A stretch of 64,000 nucleotides of DNA, from assembly GCF_030013205.1 (NCBI RefSeq), contig NZ_CP122648.1; one strand, given 5' to 3'. The notes under the pieces were generated by a model. It worked only from the letters and a program-made list of their open reading frames with translations. It was not told the DNA's origin and ran no database searches. This DNA is from Escherichia coli (GTDB lineage Bacteria; Pseudomonadota; Gammaproteobacteria; Enterobacterales; Enterobacteriaceae). Each line of letters begins with the position of its first letter. Within the stretch, counting starts at the first letter, position 1. Shown here piece by piece: positions 4,057 through 18,902 of the stretch. The position numbers were made by a program, and so were the translations under genes.

Positions 4057-6321
4057 TTACTTCTGGTTATCATCACTGTTCATCCAGTACATGATGCCTA
4101 GCCTTGATATGGTTTTCTTATCTGATTCTGGAAGTGAGTTGTAAAACGAGCGCCAAGCAGAAGAGCGTCTTACAGTTGTATCAACGATGCTTTCTGGTGC
4201 TTGTTTTACTGCCAGCCTTGCTGCTTTCTGGAATTCTGGTGAGCTAATTAGCTTTTCTGCAGATTCAATTGATTCAGCGCCGCCCATCGCCCTGATTTTG
4301 CTGGCGACTTTTGCCCCAATTTCTGACCCAGCAACAGCACCTACTGCACTGAACGGTCCTGACACAGTTGAACCAACCGCAGTGCCAATGCGTTGGGCAT
4401 GGTTAGCAACAAATTCATTTGCCGCAGTGACGCGATTAAACCGTTTGACGAACTCGTTTAGTCTTCCTGTAGTTATCTCGTAAGATTTTGCGTCTTTGAT
4501 AGCCTTTGCGACCTTATATACATCGTTCAGACCTGACATAGTCTCTTTTGGTAAATGTCGGGCAAGATTGCGCATCTGCCCGTTTGCTAACATGTTTTGA
4601 TACCAGTCAGCAAACCCTGCAGGATTAAAATCAGCGCCACGTTTTCCGTTCGAAAGCATATCCCGAAGACCTGTTCCCAGTAGCTCGGTTCTTAGCTTCC
4701 TGGACGGCGTGTTTTGCATCAATTCACGAAATCCTTTGGCATCGCCTTTCGACATTGCCTGTAGTGCTGTAGTTGCTTTGCGAGAAACATCACCGTTCAG
4801 CGTTCTGCCAGTTAGATTAATCATTTGCTCTTCCATGCTTTTTCGCATCTGAACAAGCCTCTGAGCAACTTCAAAATCACGTAATGCATTTGTCTCTGAC
4901 AGCGCCGCCTTTTGATCATCGGCGAGCGAACCGTAAAGCCTCGATAAAGCAGCGCGATCAGCATCTTTATATGGTCCAGAATTCTTATGAAGTGCATCAC
5001 CAACAAGTCGTCGTTGCTTATTGAGATTTGCATAAGTTAATGCGCCGTTCTTGCCTGGATTAATTGCCCGAAAGACTCTCTTTTCAATAGGGTCAAGGTT
5101 TTTCATCCCGCCAAGATCTTCTGCCACCTGTTTGAGCATTGACCTTGTTGATGGCGCATCAATTTTTGCACCTGCAGGCATCGCCTTTTCAACATTGCGA
5201 TAAAGCTGGTCGCTTCGTTTCATCAGCGCAGACATTCTTCCATTGACCGTATCAATAAACTTGTCGCTCATACCAAGAGCATCTTTTGCACCGGAAACGC
5301 GATCAATTATCTCCCCCGCGCCCTGTGCTAGCTGCCTGATTGCTTCATTTTCCTGCACCTGTAGAGCAGAACCCGCACGGGACTTGATTGCTTGCTCAAC
5401 TGCCTTGTATTGCTCGTTCCCGGAAAAGTGTGAAGGGAGTAATGAATCAACATTAAGCCTTTCAGCAGACTCCAGAACTTCAGCCTGAGGATTGATATCT
5501 AGTTCATCAAGCGATGAAGCGAGATTTGGCCTTTTTTGTGCTGCTACTGTGCGAACGACTTCCTCTGGGTTCCTCGTCGCAGGAGTCATTGGTACACCTT
5601 GTGCTGCTCTTGCCTCTGCGGCATGAACCGCAGGATTTGTTGCCTCTGCGGCATCACCGGAGAATGGTGATGTTTCTGTTGGCGCAGTGGTCGCTCTCTG
5701 TGCAGATGTTTTATTGCCACTAATTATATTTGATGCACCACGAACACCACGGGTAACGCCATTTATCAGGCCATGCGTAGCAATGTTAAGTCCGGCATTA
5801 ATAGCGGCATTTTCGGCAAAATCACCCTCCTGATTTGCAGCATCAGCAAGAGAACCTGCAATCATGTTTCCTGCGGAACCGATGTCTCCTGCGAGCTTTG
5901 CTGGCGCTCCAGCAACTTTTGCCGCTGTGCCAATTGGCAGGAGATACCCACCAATTGTTTCACCGGCTTGCGCCCAAGGGTCTGTCGGTCGATCGACAGG
6001 GCGATAAACATCATCCAAAACCTTGGGGCCACCAAGCCCCTGGCTGATTGCATTAATCAGACTTGCGCCACCCTGCAATACGTCAAATGGTATGTTTACC
6101 AGACCACGACCAGCCTGTTCTGCAATTTGCCCTGCGCTTTGACCACCAGTGAGCCAGTCAGTAGCTTTTCCCACCAGAGATTGTTCTTCTGGCTGCGATT
6201 GGTTTTGAGTGGATTGATCACCAGAAGACAGCATCTGAGCAATGCGACGTGCTCCCTCAGTATCGCCGGCAGCATCAGCATTCCTTAACGCCGTCATCAA
6301 CTGTTCACGACTATAGGCCAT
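4057..6321 (-). CDS. DNA ejection/transfer protein (P22 gp16-like by synteny)
   Basis: 754-aa ORF directly downstream of the gp20-like gene; Gly/Ala-rich segments. Confidence 0.7.
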
Positions 6322-7706
6322 TACTGCTCTCCGAGATATTTGCTAATTAATTCGTCATCGGACAATTGCTGTTGAGGTTGGCTATCGCCATAACTTGAGG
6401 AAAGAAAACGTTTTGCCGCAGAGTTCAATGACTCACCCTTCTTAACATCCATCCCCATGATGTTTCGGTTGCGATCAGATTGTCCTGGGCTGCCATTTGC
6501 ACTCATCCACTCTGACTTAAACTCGTTGAACTTCGCGTTATTACTTTCCATTTTTGCCATACCCCTTAACCATCGAGCCATGACCATTGGATTATCCGTT
6601 TCGCTTGGAATGCCTTTCCTTGCAAACTCAATATCCTTATCTGATGCAGGGCCGGGAGGGAGAAGCTTGGTTGCCTGCGCATTGGCTAGTTGGTTGAATC
6701 TAATCCGCATATCTCGGAGGTAGTTATCTTGCCCCGTAAGCTTAGAGAACATATTTTCAGCGTTACCGAACAAACCAGGAGTTGGCTTCTCCTTCTCCAG
6801 CGTGTCAGCGAGCGTTGTCATTGAATCGGCAGCATTACGACTAGCTGCCGCATCACCTGCTGATTTTTCTATAGCCTTTTCCATGTTCACTGATAATTTT
6901 GGCGCTGCATTAATAAGTTTCTCGGCCTTTTTTTGTGCCTGTTGTACTTCAAAACCGAATTTCTGCTTATCAAGTGCCAGTCTTTCTGCTGCAAGTCCGT
7001 GTCCGGTCATTGCAGACTGATAGGAAAGGTTTTGCCCCCTAATAGCCCTCGCATTCGTCATGTCATTATTGCGAATGGTTTCGTTAATTCTTTGCTGTTC
7101 CTGCTGGCGACCAACCATCTTATCCTGAACAGCAAACGCCTTTTCTGGTCCAAGCGCACCGAGAGACATAGTAGTCAGCATGTGTGATAGCTGCTCTGGA
7201 TTCTGGATACCTGTCTGAATCATCCAGTCAGCATTAGCACCAACGCGATTTAACCTGTCCTTGTTGTCAGTAATGAATTTACTGTAGGCTTCCGGCCCCT
7301 GAGAAAGAGCGACGTTAGCTCTCATGGCTAAATCGCCCATATCGTTGCGTTGCTGATCATTAAGACCTGAAAAAGCCTGTTGTGCCTGTGCAACAAACGC
7401 TGGATTTTCCTGGGCAAACTTAAATAGTCCCGATGGATCACCAGAAGCCCATGCATCAGCGTGAACCTTATTGAACGCCCTAATCGCTTTCTGTTGCTGT
7501 TCCTGCTTATAAATATCAGCAACTCCAGCCAGACCACGTAACGCGGTCAGACTAACGTTATTTGCACCTGATCGAGACAGTTCATTGTTTTCGCGGATCA
7601 GACCAAGCGTTGCATTAATGTCGCTTGCCTTTGGCGCATTCTCGTTTTGCGCACCAATGCCAGCCAGAAAACCACCAGAATTAATACCCTGTTGCCACGT
7701 AGCCAT
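6321..7706 (-). CDS. DNA ejection/transfer protein (P22 gp20-like)
   Basis: 461 aa, the size of P22 gp20, in the gp7-gp20-gp16 order. Confidence 0.7.
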
Positions 7707-7716
7707 TGATTACCCC

Positions 7717-8409
7717 TTAAAACAGTGAACCAAGCAGACCAAGACCAGCACCGATACCAGCACCCCACGGAGTTGATAGCTCGAGAGCACTGGCTATGCC
7801 ACCACCCAAAAGCGCACCGGATGCAGCACCACTAACCCCCTGCTGCAATGCTGACGGTCGGTTGGCATTTGCCGCAGCCAGCGCCGCGCTTTGCTGTGAA
7901 ATCTGACTCATGTTGTTGGCATATGTTTGCCCGGCGTTTGCCTGCCCCTGAAGAGCGCCAAGACCGATATTTGCCAGGTTGTTGTAATTGTTCATTTGTC
8001 CAGATAGCCATTGCTGACCAAGCGTTGGTGCGATTGTTGCTAACTGATTACTGGTTGCGGTGGAACCCAATCCACCTGTTGCTTCCGCTGCCGCAAGACT
8101 CTGATAGCGAGCCTGACCTGAAAGGTCTTTATACTGCTGAGAGTTGTAATACTGGTTAAGTGCCTGACCTTGCCCTTCCAGAGACGATAAGTTCTCGAGG
8201 CTGCCGACATACTTATCAGCCAGAGGAGTAAACGGCTTCAGGTTGTTCATGATGGTGTTGAACTGCTGATTTTGCAGGTCTGCTGCATACTTCTGAGCTT
8301 CTGCGGCATACTTTGCACTTTTATCAGAACTGCCACCTTTCCCGCCTTTTTCAGGGCAATAAGGTTCCTCGCCGCGCAGTTTTCTGCCCAGCTTAAATGC
8401 ATATAACAT
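7717..8409 (-). CDS. DNA ejection/transfer protein (P22 gp7-like)
   Basis: 230 aa starting MLYAFKLGRKLRGEEP with a Gly-rich C-terminus, recalled as typical of P22-like gp7. Confidence 0.7.
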   Translation of the reverse strand: MLYAFKLGRKLRGEEPYCPEKGGKGGSSDKSAKYAAEAQKYAADLQNQQFNTIMNNLKPFTPLADKYVGSLENLSSLEGQGQALNQYYNSQQYKDLSGQARYQSLAAAEATGGLGSTATSNQLATIAPTLGQQWLSGQMNNYNNLANIGLGALQGQANAGQTYANNMSQISQQSAALAAANANRPSALQQGVSGAASGALLGGGIASALELSTPWGAGIGAGLGLLGSLF

Positions 8410-8411
8410 GG

Positions 8412-8870
8412 CTATCTCCCGTGCTTCAGGAAGTCGATTAGTTCTTCGCGTGTGGCGCTGTAAAACGTCACGTCATCCACGCCTTTGAAGTATTTCTTGA
8501 TGGTTCCTACACGCTTAAGGCCAATCATTGCGCAGTACATCTGCCCGTGGCGGAATTTGCGTGCAGCGAACGATGTGACGCACTGAACGGTGGTGTTAGT
8601 CAGAATGTATCGCCAGAACGCCAGCCCGATTTCCTTGCTGAAGCCGCGAATCTCTGGCAGGTACATGGCGTGGCAATCAAAGGTCAGCGGCTGAATCTCC
8701 TGATAGTAAACAATTCCGCCGAACTGCCCGTGCACGTTCACCTCAAAGTAACGGCATTCAGGCTTGTAGTCGTATCCATCGCCGTTGTTGCTCCCGGCGA
8801 TAATGTCAGGGTGATTTCCTACTGCTTCGATCAGGTCGATGTTTCGCGTTGGTTTGAAATGAATCATCAC
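8412..8870 (-). CDS. Phage protein between needle and ejection genes (gp14 position)
   Basis: 152-aa ORF, start overlapping the needle gene stop. Assignment is by synteny only. Confidence 0.5.
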
Positions 8871-9688
8871 TGCTCCGCGATTATCTTGATGGTTGTGGCA
8901 GTAAACGCCGCACCATTCGACTGAATGGTTAACGTGCTGCCATTTGTGGCAAGAAAGCCGTCTTTATCCACGCTGAAGAACGTAGCTAACAGGATGTTGT
9001 CGGTTGTTGTCGCTGAGTTGCGACTGCTTACCAGTGTGTCAGGAACAGAACCGGAAAATGTTAGCTGCATTGACCTGTTGGCGGTTCCGCTGGGCCACGT
9101 CCCGACGATCGACAGCTTGAAGAACAAGGTTTTGTTCTCGTTGAACACAACCATCTTGTTGTTAACGGTGTCGAAGAATGGTGCCAACGTGCCGGATGAC
9201 GGCGTGAGCGTTTTCAGCAGGCTAACAAGGTTGGTAGGCGCTGTCGGAATTGTTACCGATACCCCTGAGTAAACAACCTCTGATTTCTTGCGCGTGGTGG
9301 CATACTCAAGCGCAGATATTCTTGTTGCGTGATCACCAACTGTGCTTTGTAGCGTCGAAATACTTCCCTCTGCCGCTGTGAGCCTGGTATCAAGTGCGTC
9401 GATATCGGTTGTATTCTGAGTTATGCGCGCATCATGGTTTGCTAACTCAGATTCATTGGCAGCAATTCGCGTATCGTGATCAGCCAGCTCTGTTTCAGCA
9501 GCCGTAATCCTTGTTTCATGATCTGCAAGAGTGCTTTCCGCTGTTGCAATTCTATGTTCATGATTGATGAGAGTTGCTTCAGCAGCTTCAATTCTGGATT
9601 CATGGTCTGCAAGGGTGACATCCTGCTCATCGTTCCTAACCTGTGCATCATAAGCGCCCTGTCCGGCCTCGTTGGCTTTGTTAGCCAC
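8867..9688 (-). CDS. Tail needle (P22 gp26-like) with coiled-coil repeats and C-terminal knob
   Basis: GTG at 9688. [20 protein letters not shown] and ADHESRI heptads match recalled gp26. The frame stays open upstream to the coat stop, encoding [30 protein letters not shown] (gp26 N-domain-like) with no in-frame ATG. Confidence 0.75.
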
Positions 9689-9838
9689 GTTACCAACATC
9701 AGTGCCCTGTGCGATAACGTAAAGCAGATACGACTGCGAGAAGATATTGCGTGGAAGGACTGATGTGTCGAGCCGTGTAGAGCATTGTTCGTGCCATTGT
9801 CTTCTCCCAATAAAAATGGGGCCGAAGCCCCACCAAAA

Positions 9839-11092
9839 TTACTGCCCGGCAATAACGATGCCCGTATATTCAGGAACAAGTACAGAGCAACCGTACAGAG
9901 TGGTGAAACGCGCAGTGGTTACGCCTTTGATGTGGTCGAAGGCGTAAGACATGATCAGCGTAGCGCCCTGCTCGGTGGTTGCTGTCATTACCTGTGGACC
10001 CTGACCAGTCGGGAACGCCAGTTTGCCGTACATCAGCTCAACAGAACCATCAGCCCAGAACAGGTTGGCCGGTGCGGCATTCTTGTTGAGAATGGTGATT
10101 GCTGCGCTACTTGCCGCGTTAGCATCAACGTTTGCATATGGTCGGCTGGCGACATCCGCGTTGTCAGGCGGCAGAATTTTCGGGGAGATAGTTACTGTCG
10201 TTCCGCTTACTGCCAGAACGCGGAATACCTGCGGCTGCCCGGTGGTATCTTTGGTGATCTGGTGTACGGAATTAACCCCTGCAATGGTAAACGCATCGCC
10301 AACCTGCAAACCTTCAGCAGATACCGTAATGGTCCCCTGTCGGTTATCCACTGGCATATCGTTAGCATCTTTCGCTTCAACCTTGTGCGCAGGTGCTGCT
10401 GCCAGCGTAATGGAAGTTGCTGTACCCTTCGGAACACGACCAGAAATATCGGTCTTGTAGCTATCGAAGGACGCAACAGGAGGGATCTGCGCTTTTTCGT
10501 ATGCTGTCAGGGTTGCGCCCTGAGCATAGGCACGGTGACCAAGCTCGCCAGCAAGGTCTTTGTAGTTGAAGGGGTTCCAGAAAGAGCGACGATTGATACC
10601 CTGCGGTACACCAATCGCCGTCATGGTGGCATCAATACCTGCCGCACAGTTCCACAAATCACGGCCCTGTGTACCTGTGGTTGAGTCAGCCATCGTGATC
10701 ACGTTAGTAGCACGCTGCGTGACCATGGAAATCAGGTCCGAGTCAATCTGTGCAGCAAGGCGCATACCTGCGGCGCGACCAGCTTCAGTTTTATGTTCCG
10801 GGTCACGCATTTCACGCGCATCCAGAGTGTACAGAATGTTTTTCGGCTCCTTGAACACAGAAGGAACAAGGCGCTGAACCAGTGCTGTTGGCGTTTTGCT
10901 GCTGAGGTCGAGGCCTTCCTCAATGTTCATGTGGTAATGCTGCGGACGATACAGAACATCACCTGCTCGCTGCATTGCTGTATCACCGGGACGGAATTTT
11001 TTAGCGTTACGGGAAACTACGCAGGCGGCCTCAAAGCCTTCAACGTAGTTTTCGAACATGATTTCAAGGTCTTTTGCTAATTGGTTAGCCAT
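9839..11092 (-). CDS. Major capsid (coat) protein, P22 gp5-like
   Basis: 417 aa following scaffold; C-terminal region similar to recalled P22 coat. Confidence 0.8.
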   Translation of the reverse strand: MANQLAKDLEIMFENYVEGFEAACVVSRNAKKFRPGDTAMQRAGDVLYRPQHYHMNIEEGLDLSSKTPTALVQRLVPSVFKEPKNILYTLDAREMRDPEHKTEAGRAAGMRLAAQIDSDLISMVTQRATNVITMADSTTGTQGRDLWNCAAGIDATMTAIGVPQGINRRSFWNPFNYKDLAGELGHRAYAQGATLTAYEKAQIPPVASFDSYKTDISGRVPKGTATSITLAAAPAHKVEAKDANDMPVDNRQGTITVSAEGLQVGDAFTIAGVNSVHQITKDTTGQPQVFRVLAVSGTTVTISPKILPPDNADVASRPYANVDANAASSAAITILNKNAAPANLFWADGSVELMYGKLAFPTGQGPQVMTATTEQGATLIMSYAFDHIKGVTTARFTTLYGCSVLVPEYTGIVIAGQ

Positions 11093-17114: not shown

Positions 17115-17267
17115 TCAACGCAGCCCCTTACCGCGCGCCAGATGCTCAATATCAAGCATCAGCAATGAGATGTTTAATCTGGATTCACTCCAGAAGTGAT
17201 CACCACCCTGTCTACAGAGCCAGATGTGAAGGATGATGAGTAGAATTATCGCTATCATCGAAGGCAT
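17115..17267 (-). CDS. Possible small ORF (50 aa) downstream of Rz remnant
   Basis: Hand translation MPSMIAIILLIILHIWLCRQGGDHFWSESRLNISLLMLDIEHLARGKGLR with AGGA RBS; start overlaps the Rz stop. Could be spurious. Confidence 0.25.
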   Translation of the reverse strand: MPSMIAIILLIILHIWLCRQGGDHFWSESRLNISLLMLDIEHLARGKGLR

Positions 17268-17480
17268 TGCGTCCTGATGTACTCCTGCAGGTAGTTAACC
17301 TGCGCGGTTATCCTGTCGATTCCACTTCGGAGACGGTAATAATTGAGTTCAGCATCTGCTGTAAGTCTTGGGCTTTCTCCATCGCCCATGCCGCTGGCTC
17401 TGGTCGTTGACTTTGCACAGGTGGCGGCGACTTGCAGGCGCTTACGACCAGCAGAAACATCAGCACGGAGACTTTCGATA
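17255..17480 (-). pseudogene. Rz: Rz (i-spanin) remnant, C-terminal part only
   Basis: ESLRADVSAGRKRLQVAATCAKSTTRASGMGDGESPRLTADAELNYYRLRSGIDRITAQVNYLQEYIRTQCLR aligns with the recalled lambda Rz C-terminus. The upstream part of the ORF has no Rz-like TM/N-terminal region and overlaps xis antisense. Confidence 0.65.
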
Positions 17481-17499
17481 TCGAAGCAGAGGACATCAA
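17308..17499 (-). CDS. Rz1: Rz1-like o-spanin lipoprotein, embedded in Rz frame +1
   Basis: Signal peptide with lipobox (LLVVSAC) followed by a proline-rich segment KSPPPVQSQRPEPAAW; the true start may be an internal Met. Confidence 0.65.
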   Translation of the reverse strand: MMSSASISKVSVLMFLLVVSACKSPPPVQSQRPEPAAWAMEKAQDLQQMLNSIITVSEVESTG

Positions 17500-17587
17500 C
17501 GACTGCTATAACCACTGGATGATATGGGCGCAGATAGCGCATGCAGACGTAACAAATATTCGAATTGAAGAACTGAAAGAACACCAA

Positions 17588-17608
17588 ACCGCCTGATGGC
17601 GGTTTTTT
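17588..17608 (+). terminator. Terminator-like hairpin upstream of xis
   Basis: ACCGCC-TGAT-GGCGGT followed by TTTTTT. Confidence 0.4.
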
Positions 17609-17635
17609 CTTGCGTGTAATTGCGGAGACTTTGCG

Positions 17636-17854
17636 ATGTACTTGACACTTCAGGAGTGGAACGCACGCCAGCGGCGCCCAAGAAGCCTTGAAACAGTTCG
17701 TCGATGGGTACGCGAGTGCAGGATATTCCCTCCTCCGGTTAAGGATGGAAGAGAGTATCTGTTCCACGAATCAGCGGTAAAGGTTGACTTAAATCGACCA
17801 ATAACAGGTAGCCTTTTGAAGAGGATCGGAAATGGGAAGAAGGCGAAGTCATGA
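17636..17854 (+). CDS. xis: Excisionase, lambda Xis-type
   Basis: 72 aa, MYLTLQEWNARQRRPRSLETVRRWVRECRIFPPPVKDGREYLFHESAVKVDLNRPITGSLLKRIGNGKKAKS matches recalled lambda Xis; overlaps the int start. Confidence 0.93.
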   Translation: MYLTLQEWNARQRRPRSLETVRRWVRECRIFPPPVKDGREYLFHESAVKVDLNRPITGSLLKRIGNGKKAKS

Positions 17855-18902
17855 GCGCCGGGATTTACCCCCTAACCTTTATATAAGAAACAATGGATAT
17901 TACTGCTACAGGGACCCAAGGACGGGTAAAGAGTTTGGATTAGGCCGAGACAGGCGAATCGCAATCACTGAAGCTATACAGGCCAACATTGAGTTATTTT
18001 CAGGACACAAACACAAGCCTCTGACAGCGAGAATCAACAGTGATAATTCTGTTACGTTACATTCATGGCTTGATCGCTACGAAAAAATCCTCGCCAGCAG
18101 AGGAATCAAGCAGAAGACACTCATAAATTACATGAGCAAAATTAAAGCAATAAGGAGGGGGCTACCTGATGTTCCACTTGAAGACATCACCACAAAAGAA
18201 ATTGCGGCAATGCTCAATGGATACATAGACGAGGGCAAGGCGGCGTCAGCCAAGTTAATCAGATCAACACTGAGCGATGCATTCCGAGAGGCAATAGCTG
18301 AAGGCCATATAACAATAAACCCGGTCGCTGCCACTCGCGCTGCAAAATCAGAGGTAAGGAGATCAAGACTTACGGCTGACGAATACCTGAAAATTTATCA
18401 AGCAGCAGAATCATCACCATGTTGGCTCAGACTTGCAATGGAACTGGCTGTTGTTACCGGGCAGCGAGTTGGTGATTTATGCGAAATGAAGTGGTCTGAT
18501 ATCGTAGATGGATATCTTTATGTCGAGCAAAGCAAAACAGGTGTAAAAATTGCCATCCCTACAACATTGCATGTTGATGCTCTCGGGATATCAATGAAGG
18601 AAACACTTGATAAATGCAAAGAGATTCTTGGCGGAGAAACCATAATTGCATCTACTCGTCGTGAACCGCTTTCATCCGGCACAGTATCAAGGTATTTTAT
18701 GCGCGCACGAAAAGCATCAGGTCTTTCCTTCGAAGGGGATCCGCCCACCTTTCACGAGTTGCGCAGTTTGTCTGCAAGACTCTATGAGAAGCAGATAAGC
18801 GATAAGTTTGCTCAACATCTTCTCGGGCATAAGTCGGACACCATGGCATCACAGTATCGTGACGACAGAGGCAGGGAGTGGGACAAAATTGAAATCAAAT
18901 AA
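17832..18902 (+). CDS. int: Tyrosine integrase, lambda Int-type
   Basis: 356 aa, near-identical to recalled lambda Int from MGRRRSHERRDLPPNLYIRNNGYYCYRDPRTGKEFGLGRDRRIA to HLLGHKSDTMASQYRDDRGREWDKIEIK. Confidence 0.95.
   Translation: MGRRRSHERRDLPPNLYIRNNGYYCYRDPRTGKEFGLGRDRRIAITEAIQANIELFSGHKHKPLTARINSDNSVTLHSWLDRYEKILASRGIKQKTLINYMSKIKAIRRGLPDVPLEDITTKEIAAMLNGYIDEGKAASAKLIRSTLSDAFREAIAEGHITINPVAATRAAKSEVRRSRLTADEYLKIYQAAESSPCWLRLAMELAVVTGQRVGDLCEMKWSDIVDGYLYVEQSKTGVKIAIPTTLHVDALGISMKETLDKCKEILGGETIIASTRREPLSSGTVSRYFMRARKASGLSFEGDPPTFHELRSLSARLYEKQISDKFAQHLLGHKSDTMASQYRDDRGREWDKIEIK

Follow-up and report, generated by a model that had tools for sequence, protein, structure and literature searches.

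The five 14-residue repeats encoded on the minus strand at 9404-9613 of the window, that is, of the whole 64,000-nucleotide stretch of Escherichia coli DNA analysed here (contig NZ_CP122648.1 of assembly GCF_030013205.1), are in all likelihood shaft heptads of an HS1/Sf6-type tail needle, which go back to an old internal duplication, change in number by rare misalignment in register and belong here to a truncated gene. Needles of the gp26 family are fibres that plug the tail hub and reach beyond the tailspikes. In the mechanism proposed, the 42-nt period would be the product of coiled-coil packing and of an internal duplication of ancient date rather than of recent DNA repeats. The units have short identical words in common in their DHExRI-coding part, and rare misalignment at those words would delete or duplicate whole units in register, the outcome being related phages with different shaft lengths among which the variants that keep the heptad phase predominate. 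In the window itself, a deletion of about 2.08 kb has taken the start and first 13 codons of the needle gene together with gp4 and gp10, which would leave no working needle.

The five units (42 nt each) lie head to tail and in frame in an ORF that ends at 8867. The peptides listed in the initial annotation are encoded exactly as given there, in tandem and in register on the minus strand, and the span of 9388-9613 that it assigned to them holds for the array proper, except that a start at 9388 takes in 16 nt of the more degenerate unit that follows. The array and the shaft around it are composed as follows, with residues numbered as in the full-length protein.

9572-9613, minus strand: unit 1, residues 70-83, two heptads
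9530-9571, minus strand: unit 2
9488-9529, minus strand: unit 3, which forms the closest pair with unit 1 (74% DNA identity)
9446-9487, minus strand: unit 4
9404-9445, minus strand: unit 5
9296-9403, minus strand: degenerate units 6-8, in the same unbroken heptad register and ending in ISALEYAT, which join the array to the knob
9296-9697, minus strand: predicted single alpha-helix (needle shaft), residues 42-175, from the AlphaFold2 monomer, the heptads and the gp26 alignment

Tandem Repeats Finder, which had been proposed as a check on the repeats, was run on positions 8500-10500 and returned no 42-nt array at a minimum score of 30; periodicity was therefore measured by autocorrelation and shuffles. 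Residue identity at lag 14 was 0.57 as compared with 0.105 +/- 0.04 in 20,000 shuffles, none of which reached the observed value (z 11.7), with further peaks at lags 28 and 42 and no signal at other lags. At the DNA level, identity at lag 42 was 0.60 against 0.31 for codon shuffles (z 8.2). The 14-residue periodicity is thus far above chance.

Once the heptad register was set with Leu70 at position a, this position was found to be Leu, Ile or Val in 15 of 15 consecutive heptads (residues 70-174) with no stutter, and the hydrophobicity power at period 7 reached a z of 9.9. At position d, the five units have His and Ala (or Asn) in turn, and Leu, Ala or His follow further on; position e is nearly always Glu or Asp, and at position g Arg alternates with Thr or Glu. 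Each 14-residue unit is accordingly two heptads, and the five units are ten of the about sixteen heptads of the shaft. The AlphaFold2 monomer model, built on 18 orthologues, displays one unbroken helix from residue 42 to 175, with a pLDDT of 91-98 over residues 61-160, followed by a beta-rich knob. The shaft also aligns to the P22 gp26 coiled coil in the structures 2POH, 3C9I and 4LIN, and the long uninterrupted heptad helical core that follows the N-terminal domain in the gp26 family is present in the gene. Heptad register, predicted helix and alignment all agree with the placement of the repeats in the needle coiled coil by the initial annotation. The coiled coil is presumably trimeric, by analogy with the solved homologues 4K6B, 3RWN and 2POH; the solved HS1-type structure, 4K6B, spans the knob and nine shaft residues only, the five units lying outside it.

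Judged by homology, the ORF is assigned to a P22-like prophage as the gene for a gp26-family tail needle of the HS1/Sf6 type. Its C-terminal 182 residues give a match to Pfam PF16532 over the full profile (1-175) with an E-value of 4e-108 and 359 bits, well above the gathering cut-off of 27, which places the knob in the Sf6/HS1 type, and the knob is 100% identical to that of HS1 (PDB 4K6B) over 153 residues. Further matches, to P22 gp26 structures (2POH, 3C9I and 4LIN among others), cover residues 14-60 and the shaft. The tail-needle identity given to the ORF at the outset is in keeping with all of these matches. Intact relatives of 317 aa are found in phage Gally and in a prophage of E. coli EC556. 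The knob and the neighbouring genes are listed below.

6321-7706: gp20-type translocase
7717-8409: gp7
8412-8870, minus strand: gp14-like DUF2824 gene (PF11039, E-value 2e-53), the usual downstream neighbour of the needle
8870-9295, minus strand: C-terminal knob of Sf6/HS1 type (PF16532, 4K6B), with the stop codon at 8867-8869
9839-11092, minus strand: P22-family major capsid (coat) gene (PF11651, E-value 1e-75), now directly upstream of the needle remnant

The position of gp16, the third ejection protein, is occupied by an ORF of 754 aa (4057-6321, minus strand). No match to Pfam was obtained for this ORF, its similarity to the third ejection protein of Gally is weak (30% identity over only 166 residues), and part of it is labelled in RefSeq as a partial "lytic transglycosylase domain" pseudogene.

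Compared with phage Huey and E. coli Res13-Lact-PEB17-18, about 2.08 kb is absent between the coat gene and the needle. The missing interval comprises the rest of a small ORF that follows the coat gene, gp4 (adaptor), gp10 (hub) and needle codons 1-13, and its traces in the window are the following.

8867-9780, minus strand: 5'-truncated needle gene remnant, from codon 14 to the stop
9778-9780, minus strand: deletion junction at a 3-nt microhomology (CTA), joining codon 7 of the small ORF to needle codon 14 out of frame
9699-9797, minus strand: fused 32-codon ORF, MARTMLY followed by out-of-frame needle sequence, still with the small ORF's own ribosome-binding site and ATG
9815-9834, minus strand: terminator-like hairpin after the coat gene, which contains the ATT start (9817) of the needle CDS in RefSeq

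The junction is seen in a three-way alignment. In comparisons with phage genomes, the coat side and the first 20 nt of the small 63-codon ORF match Huey, Kapi1 and Sf101, while from needle codon 14 on the matches are to Gally, JEP4 and Sf6; phage genomes match either flank of 9778-9780, never across. Among 5,426 complete E. coli genomes, the junction was present in one (NZ_CP122643.1, strain ETEC4079, from pig faeces in Belgium), and the deletion accordingly rests on one public assembly. Over the stretch that they have in common, the remnant differs from the intact EC556 needle gene at a single base (99.9% identical), suggesting that the deletion is probably recent. The EC556 relative is intact, with gp4 and gp10. 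Its coat type is different, being the 431-aa P22 type as against the 417-aa Huey/Sf101 type of the window, and comparison of the two sequences shows mosaicism of head and needle modules. As these modules are mosaic, the needle deletion could also stem from illegitimate recombination of two different prophages. In another prophage, a Shigella sonnei protein of 394 aa (P0058) consists of the N-terminal ~128 residues of gp4 (P22_Tail-4) fused in frame to an HS1-type needle from about residue 56, and represents an independent deletion of the same gp4-gp10-needle N-terminus interval.

The open stretch of the needle frame reaches back as far as the stop codon of the coat gene, and no ATG, GTG or TTG occurs in it before a GTG at 9688 (residue 45). 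With no start before 9688 and needle homology that begins abruptly at codon 14, a legitimate upstream needle start was ruled out; the ribosome-binding site and ATG at 9797 were likewise rejected as the needle start, as they are part of a different gene in a different frame. In principle, initiation at the GTG at 9688 could yield a product of 273 aa that is shortened at its N-terminus, and no such GTG-start product is on record in public assemblies. RefSeq (PGAP) starts the gene at the ATT, names its 316-aa product "tail needle knob protein" (WP_282843021.1) and sets no pseudogene flag. This ATT start is probably an artefact of annotation, its choice being dictated by protein homology, and WP_282843021.1 is best treated as the product of a pseudogene. 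Of the complete N-terminal domain (residues 1-60) with its own start that is typical of the gp26 family, residues 14-60 are left, and these match the intact relatives. The family gene order gp4-gp10-needle-gp14, kept in the intact relatives, is reduced to the needle followed by gp14/DUF2824, with gp4 and gp10 absent. The needle gene here thus appears to be a remnant of the gp26 family rather than a functional member of it. Its truncation is not mentioned in the initial annotation.

The prophage as a whole, located between ybhC and ybhB-bioA, is a cryptic remnant of about 20 kb. Its int and xis are directly followed by partial Rz and Rz1 (about 17255-18902 of the window), pseudogenes are also present, and the early, immunity, replication and lysis region is absent. 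Lacking the adaptor, the hub and an intact needle, the prophage cannot build a tail. In gp26-family needles the N-terminal hairpin plugs the hexameric hub (PMC9728967). Since the hub, the adaptor and the start of this hairpin are missing, the shaft repeats are presumably without function in ETEC4079, and the length of the needle would not matter to this prophage.

In the relatives, by comparison, shaft length is variable. The 120 best homologues comprise proteins of 254, 268, 282, 289, 296, 303, 310, 317, 331, 338 and 345 aa. Among protein clusters, those of 317 aa (1,430 members) and 282 aa (3,620 members) dominate. Anchoring was feasible for 101 homologues, and 97 of these keep a single heptad phase, with shaft segments that range from 48 to 139 residues and in every case leave a remainder of 6 on division by 7. 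The phase is broken in the remaining 4 of 101, singletons of 285 (P0055), 298 (P0049), 309 (P0053) and 316 aa (P0005) with changes of -32, -19, +27 and -1 residues respectively, and these records may be sequencing errors, pseudogenes or tolerated stutters; unless they are erroneous, the phase rule has exceptions. The simplest reading of the predominance of in-phase variants would be selection for a continuous coiled coil. A comparison of repeat number among related prophages, as had been proposed in the initial annotation, thus revealed whole-unit differences, the steps being 7, 14 or 28 residues. The Sf6 lineage varies by a different block, of 28 residues (254, 282, 310 and 338 aa).

Breakpoints were located by comparing the DNA of four length variants unit by unit. 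The 303-aa form carries a hybrid of unit 1 (5' half) and unit 2 (3' half), with the crossover in AGAATTG and a deletion of 42 nt, and the 289-aa form a hybrid of units 1 and 3, with the crossover in CATGAA and a deletion of 84 nt. In the 345-aa form, units 1-2 are duplicated base for base (84 nt), which is the reciprocal of the 289-aa deletion through the same misalignment of units 1 and 3. In the 268-aa form, unit 4 is joined to unit 7 in TGATCAC, with a deletion of 147 nt, or seven heptads. The breakpoints of all four variants sit in microhomologies of 6-7 nt between units, and it is presumably because the units have such short identical words in common that they are lost or gained in register. 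Either replication slippage or unequal exchange could underlie the misalignment, the sequence being compatible with both and not discriminating between them. The earlier proposal that copy number changes and thereby alters needle length is therefore borne out as far as whole-unit variants with inter-unit breakpoints exist among relatives; these are rare microhomology events, however, and not the easy slippage that it implied.

The units had also been described as near-perfect at the protein and DNA levels, a description that their sequences do not fit: pairwise identity between units is 36-71% for protein and 38-74% for DNA, and no exact direct DNA repeat in the region is longer than 9 nt, next to the blank result of Tandem Repeats Finder. 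With exact repeats no longer than this, there is no basis for assembly error in the array, and the notion of the repeats as a source of such error is unfounded. At residues common to neighbouring units, the same codon is used in 16 of 32 cases against 12.5 expected from local codon usage (P ~0.13), and since same-codon use is near this expectation, the DNA similarity is roughly what the protein similarity imposes. Across 317-aa orthologues of 73-82% identity, including those of Klebsiella and Serratia, the motif L-x-x-H-E-x-R-I-x-x-A-E is largely invariant, and each unit is closest to the unit at the same position (82, 68, 79, 70 and 73% on the diagonal for units 1 to 5, with lower values off it). 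That same-position units are the most similar across orthologues suggests that the five units predate the divergence of the lineages and have not been homogenised. That the five units arose by recent duplication was ruled out by the near-random synonymous codons together with this positional orthology across genera.

These observations bear on two other accounts of the array. It might be a tandem DNA repeat in active slippage, with needle length changing at high frequency as at a contingency-type locus, and the unit-number variants among close relatives (254-345-aa forms), which include the perfect 84-nt duplication and deletions of 14, 28 and 49 residues, are the copy-number polymorphism to be expected of a slippage-prone repeat of the minisatellite or contingency type. 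The high identity of such arrays is, on the other hand, lacking here, where units of 38-74% DNA identity have 9 identical bases in a row at most and escape Tandem Repeats Finder. Moreover, 162 of 5,426 complete E. coli genomes carry the 210-nt five-unit array at full length, with an identity of 95-100%; the array is also conserved in each of its units in orthologues from Klebsiella and Serratia that are exactly 317 aa long, and belongs to a family dominated by the 317-aa and 282-aa clusters, so that active slippage is very improbable. Conversely, the periodicity might be purely convergent from coiled-coil packing, with units that are not homologous and no internal duplication, and the near-random synonymous codons are in keeping with this account. 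It is nevertheless unlikely, as conservation extends to the non-core positions b, c, f and g (LAD-H-E-x-R-I-x-A-A-E), beyond what a/d packing needs, units 1 and 3 agree at 14 of the 15 bases at their 5' ends, and recent duplications of exactly these units in relatives show the array-building process at work. Old internal duplication followed by rare in-register misalignment is thus the preferred reading of the array, and changes in unit number are evolutionarily rare and mediated by microhomology.

An assembly artefact, whether in the repeats or in the truncated gene, is scarcely credible. What speaks for it is the occurrence of the coat-needle junction in a single assembly. The array itself, however, is identical in independent genomes and isolated phages (EC556 at 100%, Gally), and the junction lies outside it, at a 3-nt microhomology where nothing would lead an assembler to lose 2 kb of unique sequence. 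The same prophage also shows other decay, namely the Rz/Rz1 fragments beside xis and the pseudogenes.

Histidine occupies alternate core d positions at residues 73, 87, 101, 115 and 129 (units 1-5) and again at residue 164 (unit 7). The first five are invariant in the 317-aa orthologues from E. coli, Klebsiella and Serratia, and His164 is not among the invariant columns. These core His layers (about six per trimer) might act as a switch that responds to pH or metal and, at the cell envelope, destabilises the needle or sets it free; in-register gains and losses would then adapt the number of units to the tailspike type or to the surface layer of the host. Such a switch is a decidedly improbable reading, on which the invariance of the histidines and the quantised length variation are the only observations to bear.

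The closest known system is the needle of HS1, a prophage of E. coli HS (EcHS_A0316), whose solved knob is the one identical to that of the window. The intact relatives of the window gene agree with the HS1 needle in architecture, being 317 aa long with a shaft of 16 heptads, whereas the window copy lacks codons 1-13 and a canonical start and directly follows the coat gene; full-length HS1 was compared at the knob only. The HS1 tail needle is reportedly the subject of a paper by Bhardwaj et al. (2009, J Mol Biol 391:227). Its 317-aa chain has a helical core of 16 heptads as compared with 11 in Sf6 and P22, and the needles of P22-like phages span 220-320 A (PMC3741392, Leavitt et al. 2013). Needles of the HS1 type, the shaft of 16 heptads and the range of 11-16 heptads among P22-like needles are thus already published, and the array matters little beyond annotation; the breakpoints of the variants, for their part, illustrate in detail how a coiled-coil fibre is lengthened or shortened in register by way of microhomologies of 6-7 nt.

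The Sf6 gp9 needle (282 aa, knob PDB 3RWN) has a nearly identical N-terminal hub-plug domain and knob, and its first units also read LxxHExRI. It differs in having 11 heptads, in which IAQNExD IASLDTx VQSLESQ VSDHETR come after three H-type units. P22 gp26 (233 aa, 2POH, 3C9I) has a homologous N-terminal domain and coiled-coil start (...DDHESRI) and the same hub-plug role, but only two His-type units. Its C-terminus (2POH) is a triple beta-helix followed by an inverted coiled coil, not a TNF-like knob. Finally, the engineered gp26 of 4LIN (300 aa) contains an in-frame internal duplication of a coiled-coil segment, with DDHESRITANTKAITALNVRVTTAEGEIASLQTNV present twice. Although this construct is man-made, with a longer module and a P22 backbone, it shows that the fibre tolerates added repeat modules, like those of the natural 331-345-aa variants.
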